Counted from the first letter of the stretch, positions 42 to 11,468 are shown. The stretch: DNA of 21,361 nt from a virus (IMGVR_UViG_2690316028_000007), one strand, 5' to 3'. Numbers and translations: made by a program. The notes: a model not told the origin generated them from the sequence alone.

Positions 42-305
42 TTGCTGGGTAAGATCACATCACGTAAAAATCACACGAATGTGCTGATGCATATACAGGG
101 GTATTTTAGTAATTACTTAAGTACACGCCAGCGTAAAGAGTTGAGCGAGGTTATACTTAACTATCGCTTTGGCACATTGCCTCTTCTTGCGCCGTTGACT
201 CTGCTGAAGCATTATCTGGGTGAGTATCCTAATGATTACTTGCTTACACAGAATTACTTCGATCCCTATCCGGAAGAACTGGCTCTAAGACTGATGGTGA
301 ATTAA
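42..305 (+). CDS. Hypothetical small protein; C-terminal motif LPLLAPLTLLKHYLGEYPNDYLL...PYPEELALR recalls DUF1722/YbgA-like C-terminal domains (from memory, unverified)
   Basis: ORF opens after an in-frame TGA at 9-11; first start is TTG at 42, first ATG at 87. No clear Shine-Dalgarno. Possibly a gene fragment. Confidence 0.3.
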   Translation: MLGKITSRKNHTNVLMHIQGYFSNYLSTRQRKELSEVILNYRFGTLPLLAPLTLLKHYLGEYPNDYLLTQNYFDPYPEELALRLMVN

Positions 306-710
306 CTGTATGCGATATCATCTGAAAGTGATGAGTTCCTGTATGCAGGATATTTACAATCGTAAAAACTACGCTATGATGCCCATAGTGTCAGTTTGTA
401 TAAAAATCCTGTTCACGCTAAAGAAAACATTGAGATGCAATTTAATGTTGGTAAACATACCAGCCCAAAAGATTTTATTCAATCTGTTTTTATATGAAGA
501 TATTTCAAGTGAATATTAAGAGCATATAATATTATTATTGCACGCAGCTATTATAATATAACAGATTAGTTTAATGATTTGTTTTTTGTGAGTTAAACAC
601 ATGGTTTTATAGTTGTGATGCAATGAGATTTTCCTTATTGTTGAACTGGCGAATATTGATTTTCCACCTATACTTACCTGGTGTAACCCCAATGATATCA
701 GGTGGATAAT

Positions 711-1424
711 ATGCCATACATATGTTCTATCATTTTGGTGTTGAACTCGTTTGGTGTCCGAATTGGTAAAGAAGATATTTTGTTTAAAAAAGGAAATGCT
801 GTCCTCATTGAATACAATTTAAAAGATCTTTTTTCGTCAATTACAGATCATCTAATGATCGTAGATGTTGAGGAGAAAACAGTTAATGATTTCTTTAAAA
901 ACTACACACTCTCACCTTTTTCTGTAAGAAGGTTTTATCCGTCATACTTGATAGTAGAATGTGAAGATTTTTCATTGTTAAAGAACTTGGTTGCATGCTT
1001 GAATTGTGATAGCAAAACCGTGGATGTAGTTAGAAATCAAATATCACTTGCATGTCTTGCTGTCTTATCTTCAGAGAAAATAGTGCAAAGTTTTTTGTTC
1101 GGAAGTCTTAATAGCTTAGGTTGTAAAGTTAAGGCTATTATTCACTCGGATATCTCAGCGTCATGGAGACTTTGTGATATATCTTCAAGATTATATATGA
1201 GCGAGAGTTTGTTAAAAAGAAAATTAAAAGACGAAGGATTATCGTTTAGTAAATTAATTCTTGAAGAACGAATGATGATGGCGCAAAGATTATTGATCTA
1301 CAGTAACCATACTGTCGGCAAGGTGGCGGGAATATGCGGGTATGACAATGCATCATATTTTGTAAGTGTTTTTAGAGGATATTTTGGTGTGCCTCCGCAC
1401 CAATATTTATCAAGATTTTCTTAG
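711..1424 (+). CDS. AraC/XylS-family transcriptional regulator, AppY/EnvY-like prophage moron
   Basis: C-terminal AraC-type HTH (GYDNASYFVSVFRGYFGVPPHQYL; SESLLKRKLKDEGLSF resembles AppY as I recall it). ATG at 711 is 6 nt after AGGTGG. Very AT-rich gene and flanks, own terminator downstream. Confidence 0.85.
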   Translation: MPYICSIILVLNSFGVRIGKEDILFKKGNAVLIEYNLKDLFSSITDHLMIVDVEEKTVNDFFKNYTLSPFSVRRFYPSYLIVECEDFSLLKNLVACLNCDSKTVDVVRNQISLACLAVLSSEKIVQSFLFGSLNSLGCKVKAIIHSDISASWRLCDISSRLYMSESLLKRKLKDEGLSFSKLILEERMMMAQRLLIYSNHTVGKVAGICGYDNASYFVSVFRGYFGVPPHQYLSRFS

Positions 1425-1492
1425 AAGATATGATGTGATGGCATTTTATAAAGTTATTTTTTGAAGTGTAAGATTATACGATATTTTTAGCT

Positions 1493-1524
1493 ACGCCAGA
1501 ATAATTGCTGGCGTTTTTCTTTTT
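1493..1524 (+). terminator. Rho-independent terminator downstream of the AraC-like gene (may also act as a tR'-like late-operon terminator)
   Basis: ACGCCAG / CTGGCGT 7-bp stem with 8-nt loop, followed by TTTTTCTTTTT. Confidence 0.6.
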
Positions 1525-1614
1525 GAATAGATGTTCGGGCCTTACGCTAATGTAACTTCTTTCCTTCTTCGAACCAAACCGTGTACACCATCCGTTATCT
1601 GCGGAGGTGAGGCT

Positions 1615-1830
1615 ATGAAATCCATGGATAAGTTAACAACGGGCATCGCCTACAGCACCTCTGCAGGCAGTGCTGGCTACTGGTTTTTACAGTTGCTCGA
1701 TAAAGTCACGCCCTCACAGTGGGCGGCAATAGGTGTATTGGGTAGTCTGGTATTTGGCATGCTGACGTATCTGACAAACCTTTATTTCAAGATTAAAGAA
1801 GACAGGCGTAAGGTTGCGAGAAGAGAGTAA
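1615..1830 (+). CDS. essQ: Class II holin (phage 21 S-type pinholin), 71 aa, with dual-start motif Met1-Lys-Ser-Met4
   Basis: [28 protein letters not shown]...[17 protein letters not shown] closely matches the phage 21 S / EssD-EssQ holin as I recall it. Strong SD GGAGGTGAGG upstream of ATG 1615. Second in-frame ATG at 1624. Confidence 0.9.
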
Positions 1831-1834
1831 TCCA

Positions 1835-2386
1835 ATGACTCAAGACTATGAACTGGTTGTGAAAGGAGTTCGCAATTTTGAGAATAAAGTGGCGGTAACT
1901 GTAGCCTTACGGGACAAAAAACACTTTGACGGTGAAATTTTTGACCTGGACATCTCGCTGGACCGTGTTGAAGGTGCCGCGCTGGAGTTTTATGAGGCAG
2001 CAGCCAGAAGGAGCATCAGACAGGTCTTCCTGGATGTTGCTGCCGGGTTATGTGAAGGGGATGAGCAGTCGTCGGAAAAGCGCCCCATAATTTTAGAGGC
2101 GCAGAATGTGTGGATAACCTACAAAGGAAAGCTACCGGGAAGAATTACTGGTTCTCTGAAGACGCCACCGACGGCATTGCGGTCAGAAAAAGATGATATT
2201 GAATCGCCCATTGAAAAACTGGAGGGCAGCGTCGCTGATCTGAATAAAAAATTGTCGGTGCTGATTCCTTCTGAAGATGAAAAAAAACGCCGCGATGAGC
2301 AGTTTGCGGCGTTTTACGATTATTGCATTGAAGTTACTCGCAGGAATTTTGTGAAGATTTTTGAGGAGGGTAAATCTCTTCAGTAA
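1835..2386 (+). CDS. Hypothetical 183-aa protein inserted between holin and endolysin (possibly YdfR/DUF1327-like; unverified)
   Basis: ATG at 1835 lies 5 nt after the holin stop, preceded by AAGAGAG. Charged, non-membrane protein. Same strand as the lysis genes. Confidence 0.6.
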   Translation: MTQDYELVVKGVRNFENKVAVTVALRDKKHFDGEIFDLDISLDRVEGAALEFYEAAARRSIRQVFLDVAAGLCEGDEQSSEKRPIILEAQNVWITYKGKLPGRITGSLKTPPTALRSEKDDIESPIEKLEGSVADLNKKLSVLIPSEDEKKRRDEQFAAFYDYCIEVTRRNFVKIFEEGKSLQ

Positions 2387-2594
2387 GCTTATTGGCGGAC
2401 GCTGCAATTAATTCAGGAAGGTCCGCAAGGTCATCTGTCAGTGGATATGATGAAAAATCGGCGGCAGTTCTGTTAAGAAGCGCTTTAACTAATTCCTTTT
2501 CCTTCTCCGGCAACAAGTTGATTAGAGCTACGACTGCTTGCCTGAGTGCGATTAAATCAGCAAAAGTTTGTTTTGGTAGATTTGTGTAATCCAT
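2334..2594 (-). CDS. Hypothetical acidic 86-aa protein, antisense to the late operon; 3' end overlaps the preceding ORF by 53 bp
   Basis: ATG at 2594-2592 on the minus strand, preceded by AGG-containing CACAGAGGCGACT. Protein-like composition (LPEKEKELVKALLNRTAADF). No family recognised. Confidence 0.4.
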   Translation of the reverse strand: MDYTNLPKQTFADLIALRQAVVALINLLPEKEKELVKALLNRTAADFSSYPLTDDLADLPELIAASANKLTEEIYPPQKSSQNSCE

Positions 2595-2707
2595 AGTCGC
2601 CTCTGTGTTTATCAGATTGACATCCTCCTCCCGCCAGTGCCCATCACTGGTGAGGTAAGATTTAACATATCCGGGGATTTGAAGCCGATAAATCCTGATA
2701 AATATCC

Positions 2708-3735
<1,028 letters not shown>

Positions 3736-3986
3736 ATTAATATTAAATCGGATTATTTTTAGCGCTGAATGTGAAATTTAAATAAAAAGGACTCTTCCAT
3801 GAGTCAAAATCCTTGAAATCTTAAGGGTAAGATAAAAGGTCATTAGACAGAATGACACGTTTTATTAATAAATAAAGCTATTGTTTCATTCGTGTGTTTT
3901 TCTTTACAAAAGTAATCCTTGCTATGGTTGGTTAATCATGCGTTAATGGTGTTCTGGTTTGTTACAAAATTATCTGAAGCAGTCAT

Positions 3987-3995
3987 TGTTATAAT
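3987..3995 (+). promoter_or_regulatory. Candidate extended -10 element (TGtTATAAT) upstream of cspI
   Basis: TGTTATAAT read directly at 3987-3995, about 100 nt upstream of the cspI start. No good -35 found; csp genes usually have longer 5' UTRs, so the real promoter may lie further upstream. Confidence 0.3.
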
Positions 3996-4098
3996 TTTAT
4001 TATTTGTACCTCTTGAGATTTCCTTGTTGGTTTTTCTCTCTGATATTTTTTTTCGGACCATTCTGCCCAAGGGCTAACTTCTTCAAAAGGTAATAATG

Positions 4099-4311
4099 AT
4101 GTCTAACAAAATGACTGGTTTAGTGAAATGGTTTAACCCTGAAAAAGGTTTTGGTTTCATCACGCCGAAAGATGGTAGCAAAGATGTGTTTGTCCATTTC
4201 TCAGCTATTCAGAGCAACGATTTCAAAACGTTAACTGAGAATCAGGAAGTCGAATTTGGTATTGAGAACGGACCTAAAGGCCCCGCGGCTGTTCATGTTG
4301 TGGCACTTTGA
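4099..4311 (+). CDS. cspI: CspA-family cold-shock protein (70 aa)
   Basis: [38 protein letters not shown]... carries the canonical cold-shock RNP motifs. AAGG upstream. Tandem ATGs at 4096 and 4099. Long AT-rich leader. Adjacent to gnsB as in Qin. Confidence 0.9.
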
Positions 4312-4510
4312 GGTAGAAAATATTACAAACCATATTCACTTTAGATGCCCGTGTTGCCATGGTTCTCAGTATAGAACATCATCTTTTGATGTTTCTGACA
4401 GGAATCCTTTCGGGGCAAAATGTATCTTTTGTAAATCAATGATGATTACATTTGATAATATTTCACAATACTTAAATGTTAGCCGTCTGTCGTTAGATTT
4501 AAGAAAGTGA
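4295..4510 (+). CDS. Candidate zinc-ribbon small protein (CPCC...CIFC) between cspI and its terminator; start uncertain
   Basis: ORF contains [31 protein letters not shown] (CxxC-17-CxxC). The only in-frame ATG (4295) overlaps the cspI 3' end and has a poor SD. Lies upstream of the terminator at 4516-4538, so it would be co-transcribed with cspI. Confidence 0.3.
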
Positions 4511-4515
4511 AAATG

Positions 4516-4538
4516 AAGGCTCCTTCGGGAGCTTTTTT
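4516..4538 (+). terminator. Rho-independent terminator with UUCG tetraloop
   Basis: AAGGCTCC-TTCG-GGAGCTTT stem followed by TTTTTT. Confidence 0.65.
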
Positions 4539-4582
4539 GCTTAGTGTCTAGTCGATGGATACTCACATATTACGGTAACATT

Positions 4583-4813
4583 ATGAAAAAAATAATAGTT
4601 TTTTTTAACTCTGAACCAGCAATGGTAGTGCCAGTGATGACCGGAGTTAACACCATCATGCGTGAATATCCAAATGGCGAAACAACACACCTCACTGTAA
4701 TGGCTGCAGGGTTTCCATCTCTGACCGGAGATCATAAAGTCATTTATGTAGCAGCGGATCGACATGTAACTTCAGAAGAAATTCTGGAAGCAGCAATGAG
4801 ACTCTTGAATTGA
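4583..4813 (+). CDS. Hypothetical small protein (76 aa from ATG 4583; a GTG at 4544 is also possible)
   Basis: ORF MKKIIVFFNSEPAMVVPVMTGVNTIMREYPNGETTHLTVMAAG... Weak SD. Starts right after a terminator, so expression is uncertain. Could be the ynfN-like gene expected between cspI and gnsB. Confidence 0.35.
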   Translation: MKKIIVFFNSEPAMVVPVMTGVNTIMREYPNGETTHLTVMAAGFPSLTGDHKVIYVAADRHVTSEEILEAAMRLLN

Positions 4814-4985
4814 TTTGATTCTAATGCATTGATAATAAATGATAATCATCTTTATCTGTTTGTGTGAAATTTAGACCGTCGTATGTTGATTATTGCGATG
4901 TTTCATCTTATCTTTTATACGTTTGCTCCATATAATTGACACTACTGTGTACCAGGAAAGTCATAACAGACTAAAAGAGGAAATG

Positions 4986-5159
4986 ATGAACATTGAAGAG
5001 TTAAAAACAAAAACAGAAGCAGATATTTCTGAATATATAACAAAAAAAATCATTGAGCTTAAGAAAAAGACCGGGAAAGAAGTTACCAGTATCCAGTTTA
5101 CTGCACGGGAAAAAATGACTGGTCTTGAAAGCTATGATATCAAGATTGATTTAATCTAG
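4986..5159 (+). CDS. gnsB: GnsA/GnsB-family small protein (57 aa)
   Basis: MNIEELKTKTEADISEYITKKIIELKKKTGKEVTSIQFTAREKMTGLESYDIKIDLI closely resembles GnsA/GnsB as I recall them. Length 57 aa. An extra ATG at 4983 is possible. Confidence 0.85.
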   Translation: MNIEELKTKTEADISEYITKKIIELKKKTGKEVTSIQFTAREKMTGLESYDIKIDLI

Positions 5160-5224
5160 TCTGTTTATAGTATTAGCATCAATTTCTCATCAGATGCTAT
5201 TCAACAATACAAATTACCCATAAA

Positions 5225-5248
5225 CCTCGTTTTTACGGGGTTTTGTTA
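5225..5248 (+). terminator. Probable Rho-independent terminator downstream of gnsB
   Basis: CCTCG-TTTTTA-CGGGG (one G-U pair) followed by TTTTGTTATATTT. Confidence 0.45.
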
Positions 5249-5454
5249 TATTTAAACATTACCGAATAGGTATAAATCTCGATTGTCGATGGTATTGGTT
5301 GTGTGACAATACCTAATCTTTCCGGTATGCGTGAAGAGAATACAAACGACAGATTATGTAAGGGAAACGCGCTGAATCTTTCACTCTTTCATGCTGAGTG
5401 ATTTGACGTTATATTTTTAGCCGTAAGTGAAGAGCAAACGCATGGAGCGACAAA

Positions 5455-7917: not shown

Positions 7918-10893
7918 ATGGGTAAAGGCAGCAGTAAGGGGCATACCCCGCGCGAAGCGAAGGACAACCTGAAATCCACGCAGCTGCTGAGTGTGATTGA
8001 TGCCATCAGCGAAGGGCCGGTTGAAGGTCCGGTGGATGGATTAAAAAGCGTGCTGCTGAACAGTACGCCGGTGCTGGACAGTGAGGGGAATACCAATATA
8101 TCCGGCGTCACGGTGGTGTTCCGGGCAGGTGAGCAGGAGCAGACTCCGCCGGAGGGGTTTGAATCCTCCGGCTCCGAGACGGTGCTGGGTACGGAAGTGA
8201 AATATGACACGCCGATCACCCGCACCATTACGTCGGCAAACATCGACCGTCTGCGCTTTACCTTCGGTGTACAGGCACTGGTGGAAACCACCTCAAAGGG
8301 TGACAGGAATCCGTCGGAAGTCCGCCTGCTGGTTCAGATACAGCGTAATGGTGGCTGGGTGACGGAAAAAGACATCACCATTAAGGGCAAAACCACCTCG
8401 CAGTATCTGGCCTCGGTGGTGGTGGATAACCTGCCACCGCGCCCGTTTAATATCCGGATGCGCAGAATGACGCCGGACAGCACCACAGACCAGCTGCAGA
8501 ACAAAACGCTCTGGTCGTCATACACCGAAATCATCGATGTGAAACAGAGCTACCCGAACACGGCACTGGTCGGCGTGCAGGTGGATTCGGAGCAGTTCGG
8601 CAGCCAGCAGGTGAGCCGTAATTATCATCTTCGCGGGCGTATTCTGCAGGTGCCGTCGAATTATAACCCGCAGACGCGGCAATACAGCGGTATCTGGGAC
8701 GGAACGTTTAAACCGGCATACAGCAACAACATGGCCTGGTGTCTGTGGGATATGCTGACCCATCCACGCTACGGCATGGGGAAACGTCTTGGTGCGGCGG
8801 ATGTGGACAAATGGGCGCTGTATGTCATCGGCCAGTACTGCGATCAGTCAGTACCGGACGGCTTTGGCGGCACGGAGCCGCGCATCACCTGTAATGCATA
8901 CCTGACCACACAGCGCAAGGCGTGGGATGTGCTCAGTGATTTCTGCTCGGCGATGCGCTGTATGCCGGTATGGAACGGGCAGACGCTGACGTTCGTGCAG
9001 GACCGACCGTCGGATAAGGTGTGGACCTATAACCGCAGTAATGTGGTGATGCCGGATGATGGCGCGCCGTTCCGCTACAGTTTCAGCGCCCTGAAAGACC
9101 GCCATAATGCCGTTGAGGTGAACTGGATTGACCCGGATAACGGCTGGGAGACGGCGACAGAGCTTGTTGAAGATACGCAGGCCATTGCCCGTTACGGTCG
9201 TAACGTCACGAAGATGGATGCCTTTGGCTGTACCAGCCGGGGGCAGGCGCACCGCGCCGGGCTGTGGCTGATTAAAACGGAACTGCTGGAAACGCAGACC
9301 GTGGACTTCAGCGTGGGTGCGGAAGGGCTTCGCCATGTACCGGGGGATGTCATTGAAATCTGCGATGATGACTATGCGGGTATCAGCACCGGCGGGCGCG
9401 TGCTGGCGGTGAACAGCCAGACCCGGACGCTGACGCTCGACCGTGAAATCACGCTGCCATCCTCCGGTACCACGCTGATAAGCCTGGTTGACGGTCAGGG
9501 TAATCCGGTCAGCGTGGAGGTCCAGTCCGTCACCGACGGCGTGAAGGTGAAAGTGAGCCGTGTTCCTGACGGCGTTGCAGAATACAGCGTGTGGGGGCTG
9601 AAGCTGCCGACGCTGCGCCAGCGCCTGTTCCGCTGCGTGAGTATCCGTGAGAACGATGACGGCACGTATGCCATCACCGCCGTGCAGCATGTACCTTCTG
9701 CCCGTAAGGTGAATGGTAAGGCGCTTTCAGCGGATATAACACTGACGCCGAAAGATATTGGTACGCTTAACTCAACAACAATGTCATTCAGCGGTGGTGC
9801 TGGTTGGTTCAAATTAGCAACGGTAACCATGCCACAGGCGAGTTCTGTTGTTTCAATTACGTTGATTGGTGGCGCGGGATTTAACGTGGGGTCACCTCAA
9901 CAGGCAGGTATATCTGAACTTGTTTTGCGTGCAGGTAATGGTAATCCGAAGGGGATTACTGGTGCTTTATGGCAGCGCACATCGACAGGGTTTACAAATT
10001 TTGCCTGGGTCAATACATCTGGTGATACTTACGATATTTACGTTGCAATCGGAAATTATGCGACTGGTGTAAATATTCAATGGGATTATACCAGTAATGC
10101 CAGCGTGACGATTCATACGTCACCAGCATATTCTGCTAATAAGCCGGAAGGGTTAACGGACGGTACAGTTTATTCACTCTATACGCCATCAGAGCAGTTT
10201 TATCCGCCTGGCGCACCAATCCCGTGGCCATCAGATACCGTTCCGTCTGGCTATGCCCTGATGCAGGGGCAGACTTTTGACAAATCTGCATACCCGAAAC
10301 TTGCAGCCGCTTATCCGTCAGCCGTGATCCCTGATATGCGTGGCTGGACGATTAAGGGCAAACCCGCCAGTGGTCGTGCCGTATTGTCTCAGGAACAGGA
10401 CGGCATTAAATCGCACACCCACAGCGCCAGCGCATCCAGTACGGATTTGGGGACGAAAAACACATCGTCGTTTGATTACGGAACCAAATCCACGAATAAC
10501 ACCGGGGCGCATACCCATAGTATTAGCGGGACTGCAAATAGTGCCGGTGCGCACCAACACAAGAGTTCCGGTGCATTTGGTGGCACGAACACGAGCATTT
10601 TCCCTAATGGTTATACCGCGATTTTAAATCTAAGCGCGGGGATTATGAGCACAACAAGCGGTAGTGGCCAGACTCGTAATGCAGGGAAGACATCATCAGA
10701 TGGTGCTCATACCCACTCGCTGTCCGGCACTGCTGCAAGCGCAGGCGCACATGCACATACTGTCGGTATTGGTGCTCATACGCACTCCGTTGCGATTGGT
10801 TCACATGGACACACCATCACCGTTAACGCTGCTGGTAACGCGGAAAACACCGTCAAAAACATCGCATTTAACTATATTGTGAGGCTTGCATAA
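7918..10893 (+). CDS. stfQ: Chimeric tail fibre: lambda J (host-specificity protein) N-terminal about 597 aa fused in frame to a side-tail-fibre C-terminus with tail-collar-like region and HxH repeats
   Basis: N-terminus [34 protein letters not shown]... matches lambda J as remembered, up to ...AITAVQHVP (about nt 9700). Thereafter the protein diverges and GC content drops. C-terminus has GAHTHS/GAHAHT/GSHGHT repeats and ends [25 protein letters not shown] upstream of the ATG. Confidence 0.85.
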
Positions 10894-11468
10894 TGGCATT
10901 CAGAATGAGTGAACAACCACAGACCATAAAAATTTATAATCTGCTGGCCGGAACTAATGAATTTATTGGTGAAGGTGACGCATATATTCCGCCTCATACA
11001 GGTCTGCCAGCAAACAGTACCGATATTGCACCGCCAGATATTCCGGCAGGCTTCGTGGCTGTTTTCAACAGTGATGAGGCATCGTGGCATCTCGTTGAAG
11101 ATCATCGGGGAAAAACCGTCTATGACGTGGCTTCCGGCGACGCGTTATTTATTTCTGAACTCGGTCCGTTACCGGAAAATGTTACCTGGTTATCGCCGGA
11201 AGGGGAGTTTCAGAAGTGGAACGGCACAGCCTGGGTGAAGGATACGGAAGCAGAAAAACTGTTCCGGATCCGGGAGGCGGAAGAAACAAAAAACAACCTG
11301 ATGCAGGTAGCCAGTGAGCATATTGCGCCGCTTCAGGATGCTGCAGATCTGGAAATTGCAACGGAGGAAGAAATCTCGTTGCTGGAAGCATGGAAAAAGT
11401 ATCGGGTATTGCTGAACCGTGTTGATACGTCAACTGCACAGGATATTGAATGGCCAGCACTGCCGTAG
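10893..11468 (+). CDS. tfaQ: Tail fibre assembly chaperone (lambda Tfa-like)
   Basis: [54 protein letters not shown]... is nearly identical to lambda Tfa as remembered. Start overlaps the stf stop (TAATG). Confidence 0.9.

Follow-up and report, generated by a model that had tools for sequence, protein, structure and literature searches.

Does the AT-rich gene that lies just ahead of the lysis genes in a Qin-type prophage encode an intact transcriptional regulator, and do its targets lie in the phage or in the chromosome of the host? The question was raised by an earlier note on a stretch of 21,361 nucleotides of viral DNA (IMGVR_UViG_2690316028_000007; hereafter the window, to whose first base all coordinates refer). 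The gene was described there as a moron that encodes a 237-aa, AppY-like regulator of the AraC/XylS family, possesses its own promoter region and terminator and may act on chromosomal genes. In the literature library searched, by WP accessions and context words, no paper on the regulator or its cassette was found.

The gene, its protein and its relatives

An uninterrupted open reading frame on the plus strand runs from an ATG at 711 to a stop codon ending at 1424 and encodes 237 amino acids. A Shine-Dalgarno sequence, AGGTGG, can be read at 700–705 (+), 5 nt ahead of the ATG; the alternative in-frame GTG start at 702 falls within it. RefSeq places the same 237-aa frame, with the same ATG start, in the identical DNA of E. 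coli B REL606. The REL606 copy (WP_001146314.1) differs from the window protein by one residue and is labelled solely as "helix-turn-helix domain-containing protein". The assignment of the coding sequence (711–1424, +) to an AraC/XylS-family regulator draws on Pfam, PHROG 1450, the identity to PatE, an AlphaFold2 model and dN/dS ratios. The protein consists of an N-terminal regulatory domain (aa 1–134, nucleotides 711–1112, +) and a C-terminal DNA-binding domain of about 100 residues with two helix-turn-helix motifs (aa 135–237, nucleotides 1113–1421, +). Over residues 158–234 the Pfam models HTH_18 and HTH_AraC score 59.9 and 42.8 bits (cutoffs 33.6 and 26.6), and the match to PHROG 1450 spans residues 1–237 (E = 4.8e-96). 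PHROG 1450 itself carries the label "unknown function".

The earlier note was prepared to abandon its reading if no AraC-type helix-turn-helix were detected, or if the gene proved to be a fragment of a larger, disrupted frame in related genomes. Both Pfam domains lie above their cutoffs, as just described, so that the family and length given in the note stand. The idea of a fragment was rejected since the database homologues are 237–247 aa long, which makes the regulator full-length. Entries of 306–308 aa do occur in the databases; these belong to PatE and are variants whose N- or C-terminus has been altered. The window allele stops 6 residues before the 243-aa alleles, at a point past the DNA-binding domain.

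Comparison with AppY, EnvY and the prophage regulators of EHEC, proposed in the same note, revealed that the EHEC proteins are the nearest. With PatE, encoded on O-island 8 of O157:H7, all 237 residues align at an identity of 47.7% (E = 7e-76). For PsrA (Sakai ECs1087), translated from the upstream start MVVVCSV, the full-length value is 37%, and the C-terminal 160 aa taken alone give 46.9%. Full-length identities to GadW, AppY and YdeO are 33%, 30% and 29%, respectively; EnvY shares 31%, and GadX 41% in the DNA-binding domain only. The description "AppY-like" thus holds for the clade and is too loose below it, AppY standing at 30% against 48% for PatE and 37% for PsrA. Orthology to AppY, YdeO, GadX or GadW was rejected on the basis of these identities of 29–33% and of the NCBIfam equivalog models, none of which was satisfied by the window protein; the best score, 112.5 bits for YdeO, compares with a cutoff of 348, and that for GadX, 89.9 bits, with a cutoff of 500.

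The similarity is distributed unevenly between the two domains. In the DNA-binding domain the identity to PatE and PsrA amounts to 65% and 54%, in the N-terminal domain to 34% and 24%. The first recognition helix, SESLLKRKLKD, is the same as in PatE at 10 of 11 positions, and the lysine aligned with Lys170 of AppY is invariant in all eight proteins compared. In AppY the K170E change abolishes DNA binding (PMC10057817). The homologues of 237–247 aa have an N-terminal M1/C5 signature in common with GadW, YdeO and AppY. By this homology we place the regulator in the GadW/YdeO/AppY clade, in a phage-borne branch together with PatE, PsrA and PsrB of O157:H7. The homology to PHROG 1450, PatE and PsrA is full-length and includes the N-terminal domain, and the gene is carried by Escherichia phages and prophages, typically in the interval between Q and the lysis genes. 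The window protein is almost certainly an intact AraC-type regulator moron of this PatE/Psr branch. It is a previously uncharacterised, unsurprising addition to a known class, and no new kind of mechanism is involved.

The AlphaFold2 model, built from 11 homologues, has a pLDDT of 88.7 and a pTM of 0.82. Its C-terminal domain superimposes on the DNA-binding domain of GadX (3mkl) with 1.1 Å at 40% identity, and the best full-length Foldseek matches are CsvR, Rns and ToxT (E = 4e-11 to 5e-7). These three share the two-domain architecture of the model, but at 17–20% identity, with a TM-score of about 0.45 and a different orientation of the domains. Regulators of the Rns/ToxT type have a fatty-acid pocket, and in Rns it is H20 and R75 that bind the carboxylate. 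In a profile alignment with CsvR and Rns, the window protein begins at about residue 27 of Rns and is devoid of the counterparts of I14, I17 and H20, while R75 is aligned with Asp52; over the N-terminal domain, confidence in this alignment is low. A pocket of the Rns/ToxT type was rejected since its residues are not conserved, a judgement that shares the low confidence of the N-terminal alignment. The idea had been attractive because of the lipocalin gene that accompanies the regulator.

The transcription unit and its prophage setting

Many E. coli chromosomes, among them that of REL606, match the region with 99.6–99.8% identity. The far end of the window enters ydfJ, ydfI and dcp, which form the attachment region of Qin, and we assign the window to a Qin-type defective prophage at ydfJ. 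In REL606 the order of genes is Q antiterminator, lipocalin (minus strand), an IS3-interrupted DUF523/YbgA gene, the regulator, the essD holin, ydfR, rrrQ, rzpQ and cspI. The window opens with the terminal 57 bp of IS3 (1–57), which match the ends of the two IS3 copies at the REL606 locus with 100% identity, and most related genomes align with the window only from base 58 on. The IS3 end is followed at 58–305 (+) by the 3′ remnant of a YbgA-family (DUF523/DUF1722) gene. This remnant is 99.6% identical to REL606 (L001:11759-12021) and corresponds to positions 234–319 of the 319 positions of PHROG 3275. The junction of IS3 and YbgA in the window lies about 570 bp further downstream than that of REL606, and the last 82 codons are left. 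An intact 319-aa gene of this family was found in five other loci (L007-L011). The YbgA-family gene is the usual upstream neighbour of the regulator in the cassette and has been truncated here by IS3.

Downstream, the regulator ends about 190 bp ahead of a holin gene of the essQ/essD type at 1615–1830 (+), the first of the lysis genes, identified through PHROG holin families and through RefSeq on identical DNA. The position just upstream of lysis genes given in the earlier note is therefore right, and so is its statement that cold-shock genes occupy this place in K-12 Qin, where the interval from quuQ (ydfT) to essQ contains cspF and cspB. In DLP12 the Q-to-holin slot holds nmpC, and Stx phages carry stx there. 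In other lambdoid prophages the regulator occurs either together with the lipocalin and YbgA genes or without them.

The base composition sets the unit apart. The open reading frame has a GC content of 33.5% (GC3 30.7%) and the unit as a whole (306–1524) of 32.3%, to be compared with 43.0% in bases 1–305, 47.3% in the lysis genes (1525–3735) and 46.5% in the window. The contrast with the flanks noticed earlier was confirmed by this calculation (32–34% vs 43–47%). A second AT-rich island of similar kind extends over 3600–5400, around cspI. The high-affinity H-NS motif TCGATAAATT is not enriched in the window (22 matches vs 28.5 expected), and one of its matches lies in the unit. With its distinct composition, its replacement by other genes in K-12 Qin and DLP12 and a predicted terminator of its own, the feature is a moron: an AT-rich, terminator-bounded unit between the Q antiterminator and the holin, the promoter of which is at the level of a candidate.

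The promoter evidence of the earlier note, several TATAAT hexamers at 520–560, was only partly upheld. The hexamers exist, at 525–530 and 552–557 on the plus strand, with a further one on the minus strand at 550. They were rejected as promoter evidence because they occur at chance frequency (17 in the window vs 12.9 expected) and are missing from one class of alleles: the segment that contains them is present in the allele of 89% identity and absent from that of 82% (L009, lambda-like phages). Promoter-like sites in general number 7 in the interval 250–1700, where shuffled sequences give 6.3. The best sigma-70-like match of this interval, TTTACA-N16-TATGAT at 353–380 (+), agrees with the consensus at 10 of 12 positions. 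Both of its hexamers are invariant in an upstream alignment of four loci (the window, L007, L009 and L010), in which the adjoining bases vary. The same alignment shows a private 53-nt insertion in the window at about 469–521.

The second candidate, CTGGCG-N17-TATACT at 646–674 (+), was passed over by the promoter scan in the window since its −35 hexamer agrees at just 3 of 6 positions. Its TATACT and the spacing to a TTGGCA-like hexamer are nevertheless kept in the 82% allele, in the relatives of 60% and 50% identity, in PatE and in phage mEp332. The leaders of the relatives follow a common pattern, in which a TTGGCA-like hexamer, 17–18 nt, TATACT, about 25 nt and GGTGGAT precede the ATG. Leaders of the PatE type read TTGGCA-N18-TATACT, of which the window sequence is a weaker version. 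We consider 646–674 most likely to be the promoter of the family and 353–380 a possible second one, both of them candidates identified in the DNA; transcription would accordingly begin near 681 and near 387, respectively. The four-locus alignment further revealed a conserved leader block at 661–707, extending from TTTCCACCTATACTTAC to CAGGTGGAT, and the CAGGTGGAT block at the Shine-Dalgarno sequence is invariant among the alleles. A hairpin that would sequester the Shine-Dalgarno sequence, by pairing of TCCACCT (663–669) with AGGTGGA (700–706), was rejected with z-scores of only −0.3 to −0.9. It is predicted for the window, the 82% allele and PatE (with a different 5′ arm), and is absent from the 60% relative. 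Its 5′ arm would lie upstream of the transcription start expected from the proximal TATACT.

The claim that the unit has its own terminator has fared better. An intrinsic terminator is predicted at 1493–1524 (+), 69 nt beyond the stop codon, with a hairpin at 1493–1514 whose 7-bp stem contains 5 GC pairs and is followed by the T-run TTTTTCTTTTT. The folding energy is −11.3 kcal/mol (z = −2.5 vs shuffles). The hairpin is invariant in all four aligned cassette loci, the window included, which represent three allele classes with nucleotide identities in the gene as low as 82%, and a similar hairpin with T-run follows the 50% relative. This conservation supports the idea that the terminator insulates the holin from transcription in the lysogen.

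Distribution, exchange and selection

Of the 5,426 complete E. coli genomes covered by a sensitive nucleotide search, about 1,030 (~19%) carry an allele with a nucleotide identity of 80% or more, and in 330 of these the identity is 99% or more. Another 575 gave partial matches only, of 60–80% identity; those listed come from O157:H7-type genomes and match at ~72%, and the one that was inspected is patE. In a scan with one genome per species, relatives of more than 45% identity were confined to E. coli-type sequence, a match in a "Nanosynbacter" MAG being evident contamination by E. coli, and other genera gave just relatives at the level of GadW or AppY (28–34%). The regulator is carried by commensal, ExPEC-type and laboratory E. 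coli B strains and also by viable lambdoid phages.

The alleles form three classes of about 100%, 85% and 76% protein identity. Around the 85% and 76% alleles the order is Q, lipocalin (−), YbgA (+), regulator (+) and holin, and their prophages occupy other sites, for example next to ybhC; DLP12-like prophages with iss/bor are among them. Phage IdasGreatGrand carries an allele of 86% protein identity between Q and holin, and the lambda-like phages "Lambda_ev", 1H12 and Lambda_2G7a carry the 76% allele in the same interval. The relatives of 60% (L014) and 50% (L015) follow directly after different Q types, without lipocalin or YbgA. In L015 a holin comes next; the contig of L014 ends within an uncalled essD-type frame (MKSMDK...). 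In Sakai prophage Sp4, PsrA is encoded past Q and ahead of the region with the tRNA and lysis genes. On this distribution we regard the regulator as an independently mobile cargo of the Q-to-holin slot in Escherichia lambdoid phages.

Substitution rates were compared between the allele classes. The dN/dS of the regulator is 0.20–0.27 and that of the neighbouring Q, lipocalin, YbgA and holin genes 0.01–0.20, both ranges leaving out near-identical pairs, for which the ratios derive from very few substitutions. These values indicate that the regulator is functional and under purifying selection, though with a looser constraint than the neighbouring genes. The dN of the regulator (0.07–0.13) is about 5–7 times that of the upstream cassette genes. 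Its dS (0.32–0.60 vs 0.06–0.30) is likewise unlike that of the neighbours, which suggests that the regulator has been exchanged independently of them. IS1-disrupted and shortened copies occur in some genomes (H45, H51; P0012, P0014, P0016).

Proposed function and comparison with known systems

Several relatives have been studied experimentally. In the review PMC10877973, PatE is described as an activator of gadE, gadBC and hdeAB, with the site of hdeA activation mapped to −132 to −45. According to the same review, PsrB activates gadE and hdeAB and binds directly to the gadE promoter and to the −132 to −45 region of hdeA, and PsrA and PsrB repress type III secretion via raised GadE and YhiF. 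AppY binds gadY and slp and, directly, P3 of gadE; the acid resistance that it confers depends on gadE (PMC10057817). The expression of psrA is measurably regulated in vivo and responds to relief of silencing by H-NS/Hha (PMC13502914).

By analogy with these systems, the following course can be proposed. In the lysogen the regulator would be weakly transcribed from its own promoter, for which 646–674 and/or 353–380 are the candidates, and H-NS would probably silence the unit, judging from its AT content. The terminator would keep this transcription out of the lysis genes. The protein would bind AT-rich DNA ahead of gadE and hdeAB, within the acid-fitness island of the host, as PatE, PsrB and AppY do, with the outcome that GadE and glutamate-dependent acid resistance rise; in LEE-positive hosts, type III secretion would be lowered indirectly. 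Upon induction of the prophage, Q-modified RNA polymerase would pass the terminator and the regulator would be co-transcribed with the late genes. An activator of the acid-fitness island is proposed because the DNA-binding domain is 65% identical to that of PatE and the recognition helix is near-identical. As a whole, the reading of the protein as an intact AraC moron of the PatE/Psr branch that activates gadE/hdeAB appears reasonably probable. The naming of gadE/hdeAB as the specific target, made by analogy, is tentative and close to evenly balanced. The targets or signals may differ from those of PatE, to judge from an identity of 48% overall and 34% in the N-terminal domain.

A regulator in this position might instead serve its own neighbourhood or the phage. 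AraC-family proteins often control adjacent genes, and the block of Q, lipocalin (−), YbgA (+), AraC-like gene (+) and holin is conserved in several prophages and viable phages, as would suit a local regulator of the divergent, Blc-like lipocalin gene and the YbgA-family (DUF523/DUF1722) gene that leaves chromosomal genes alone. We find such a role quite unlikely. The 60% and 50% relatives and PsrA follow Q without either gene; patE is found elsewhere, near a tail-fibre/pin region; and IS3 has destroyed the YbgA gene in the window with the regulator still intact. The divergence in dS, suggesting independent exchange, points in the same direction. A part in the phage life cycle, whether in the tuning of late or lysis genes, in the lysis-lysogeny decision or in superinfection exclusion, would agree with the retention of the gene by plaque-forming lambdoid phages and with its location directly ahead of the holin in the late operon, where it would be co-transcribed after Q has acted. 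The slot, however, is dispensable cargo space, as the csp genes of K-12 Qin and nmpC of DLP12 illustrate, defective prophages keep the regulator under purifying selection, and the characterised relatives act on host genes; taken together, these observations make a life-cycle role very unlikely.

The regulator could also be silent in this host, its prophage being defective and IS3 lying at 1–57. An intact-looking frame that persists in a decaying prophage as a relic, never usefully expressed in this host, would be in keeping with the IS-ridden state of the prophage, with AT-rich DNA of the kind typically bound by H-NS, with the degenerate proximal −35 hexamer of the window allele and with the IS1-disrupted and shortened copies in some genomes. 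We nonetheless hold this to be improbable in view of a dN/dS of 0.20–0.27 across the allele classes, the conservation of the Shine-Dalgarno sequence, the leader block and the terminator alike, the presence of alleles with a nucleotide identity of 80% or more in about 1,030 of the 5,426 complete genomes and the measurable in vivo regulation of the relative psrA (PMC13502914). A further possibility, which we likewise deem unlikely, is a separate phage-borne AraC branch whose N-terminal domain senses another signal than that of PatE and the Psr proteins and whose regulon is other, or wider, than GAD. The case of AppY indicates that members of the clade can have wider regulons than GAD. AppY acts in addition on hya, app and nhaR and has effects on RpoS. 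The separate branch was conceived with the fast-evolving N-terminal domain in view, its wider regulon being likened to the hya/app, biofilm and RpoS functions of AppY, and a possible joint action with the lipocalin and YbgA (TudS-like) genes that accompany the regulator was considered along with it.

The acid-fitness-island reading, which we prefer, would bear on strain biology. AppY, PatE, PsrA and PsrB constitute a recognised phage route into the acid-resistance and virulence circuitry of E. coli, and the known set of regulators is extended here to a family of common alleles, labelled in databases only as "helix-turn-helix domain-containing protein" or "unknown function". Should the activation of gadE be true, the regulator would be a hidden variable in the differences of acid resistance between strains, including hosts of the REL606 type, and one more phage regulator convergently wired onto a single host hub. 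Should the separate branch be true, the carriage of phages would be tied to a host regulon other, or wider, than GAD, with roughly a fifth of E. coli genomes, the laboratory B lineage (REL606) among them, having a member of the branch.

Among the known systems, AppY, GadW and YdeO belong to the same AraC subclade, and the N-terminal MxxxCS signature is common to all of them and the window protein. The N-terminus of GadX is different and longer, and only the Cys of this signature is kept there. A dual helix-turn-helix domain and a lysine at the position of K170 are present in all four and in the window protein, and the four converge on gadE and the acid-fitness island. The gene appY adjoins ompT at the far end of DLP12, outside the Q-to-holin slot. 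PsrA and PsrB (Z1789/Z2104; Sakai ECs1087) are members of the same family, with a length of ~237 aa from the start MVVVCSV. Like the window gene, psrA occupies the slot of a lambdoid prophage that follows Q and precedes the lysis genes. The psr genes are, however, linked to effector loci, pch regulators and tRNA genes, whereas the neighbours of the window gene are the lipocalin and YbgA-family genes, and the psr leader differs from that of the window. PatE (Z0321 of EDL933) is the closest characterised protein, prophage-borne like the window protein and 247 aa long in comparison with 237. Its leader also has the TATACT block and the GGTGGAT Shine-Dalgarno region, but patE is situated in another prophage, close to its tail-fibre/pin end, whereas the window gene lies between Q and holin. 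For PatE the activation of gadE and hdeAB is experimental, as given in PMC10877973, while for the window protein it is proposed by analogy.

Cargo between Q and the holin

A conserved block of three cargo genes was found between Q and the holin, consisting of a minus-strand gene for a Blc-like lipocalin, a TudS/YbgA-like gene of the DUF523/DUF1722 type (319 aa) and the AraC-like gene. The block is carried by prophages at differing chromosomal sites as well as by viable lambdoid phages, and it was located in four of the comparison loci with an intact cassette (L007:2440-6136, L009:2472-6115, L010:2440-6137 and L011:2472-6115), where it includes the genes lying upstream of the window's start. 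In the window itself, only the terminal 57 bp of an IS3 element come first (1-57), and they run straight into the 3′-most 248 bp of a gene of the YbgA family (DUF523/DUF1722; 58-305). The same gene is also broken by IS3 in REL606, but the window copy lacks ~570 bp more of it. This additional loss looks like the result of an IS3-adjacent deletion.

Leader and relatives of the regulator

Upstream of the regulator, a 53-nt intergenic segment (~469-521) is confined to the window/REL606-type allele, the 89% and 82% alleles both lacking it. Nearer to the gene, AGGTGGA (700-706), which includes the Shine-Dalgarno sequence, is able to pair with TCCACCT (663-669) in a predicted hairpin. Both arms are invariant among the alleles while the loop between them diverges. 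Folding z-scores for this leader hairpin (663-706) were −0.3 to −0.9 and not significant, and the Shine-Dalgarno-pairing hairpin is absent from the leader of the 60% relative. An analogous hairpin is possible in the leader of PatE, though its 5′ arm differs from that of the window.

In the case of psrA of Sakai (ECs1087, L006:28677-29390), the RefSeq start is an internal Met, and the annotated product has 195 aa. If translation is read from a start further upstream in the same frame, the protein has 237 aa and begins with MVVVCSV, in agreement with the conserved N-terminus of the family.

A MAG named 'Candidatus Nanosynbacter sp.' contains E. coli sequence on contigs JARKOR010000151.1 and JARKOR010000108.1 (L016 and L031); L016 encodes the 85% allele of the regulator and L031 a relative with just 29% identity. 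The E. coli sequence in this MAG is almost certainly binning contamination, and the same is probably true of L023, a contig of a 'Planococcaceae' MAG.

RNA elements and the lysis region

Two Rfam families were matched further downstream. The small RNA family IS009 gave a full-length match on the plus strand at 11236-11434 (220.9 bits, gathering score 117), located in the 3′ part of ORF 10893-11468, presumably a tail-fibre assembly gene, and adjoining the pin-type invertase gene. The cspA thermoregulator was matched at 3941-4357 (109.8 bits, gathering score 78), which is the 5′ leader of cspI, a cold-shock gene of the prophage. This match lies within a second AT-rich island (~3600-5400, GC 0.29-0.40) downstream of the lysis genes, the cargo of which is cspI, ynfN and gnsB.

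Directly after the holin, a YdfR-like ORF (1835-2386; 183 aa from ATG) has a full-length match to PHROG 2091. The encoded protein is far longer than YdfR of K-12 (103 aa) and than the truncated copy of REL606.
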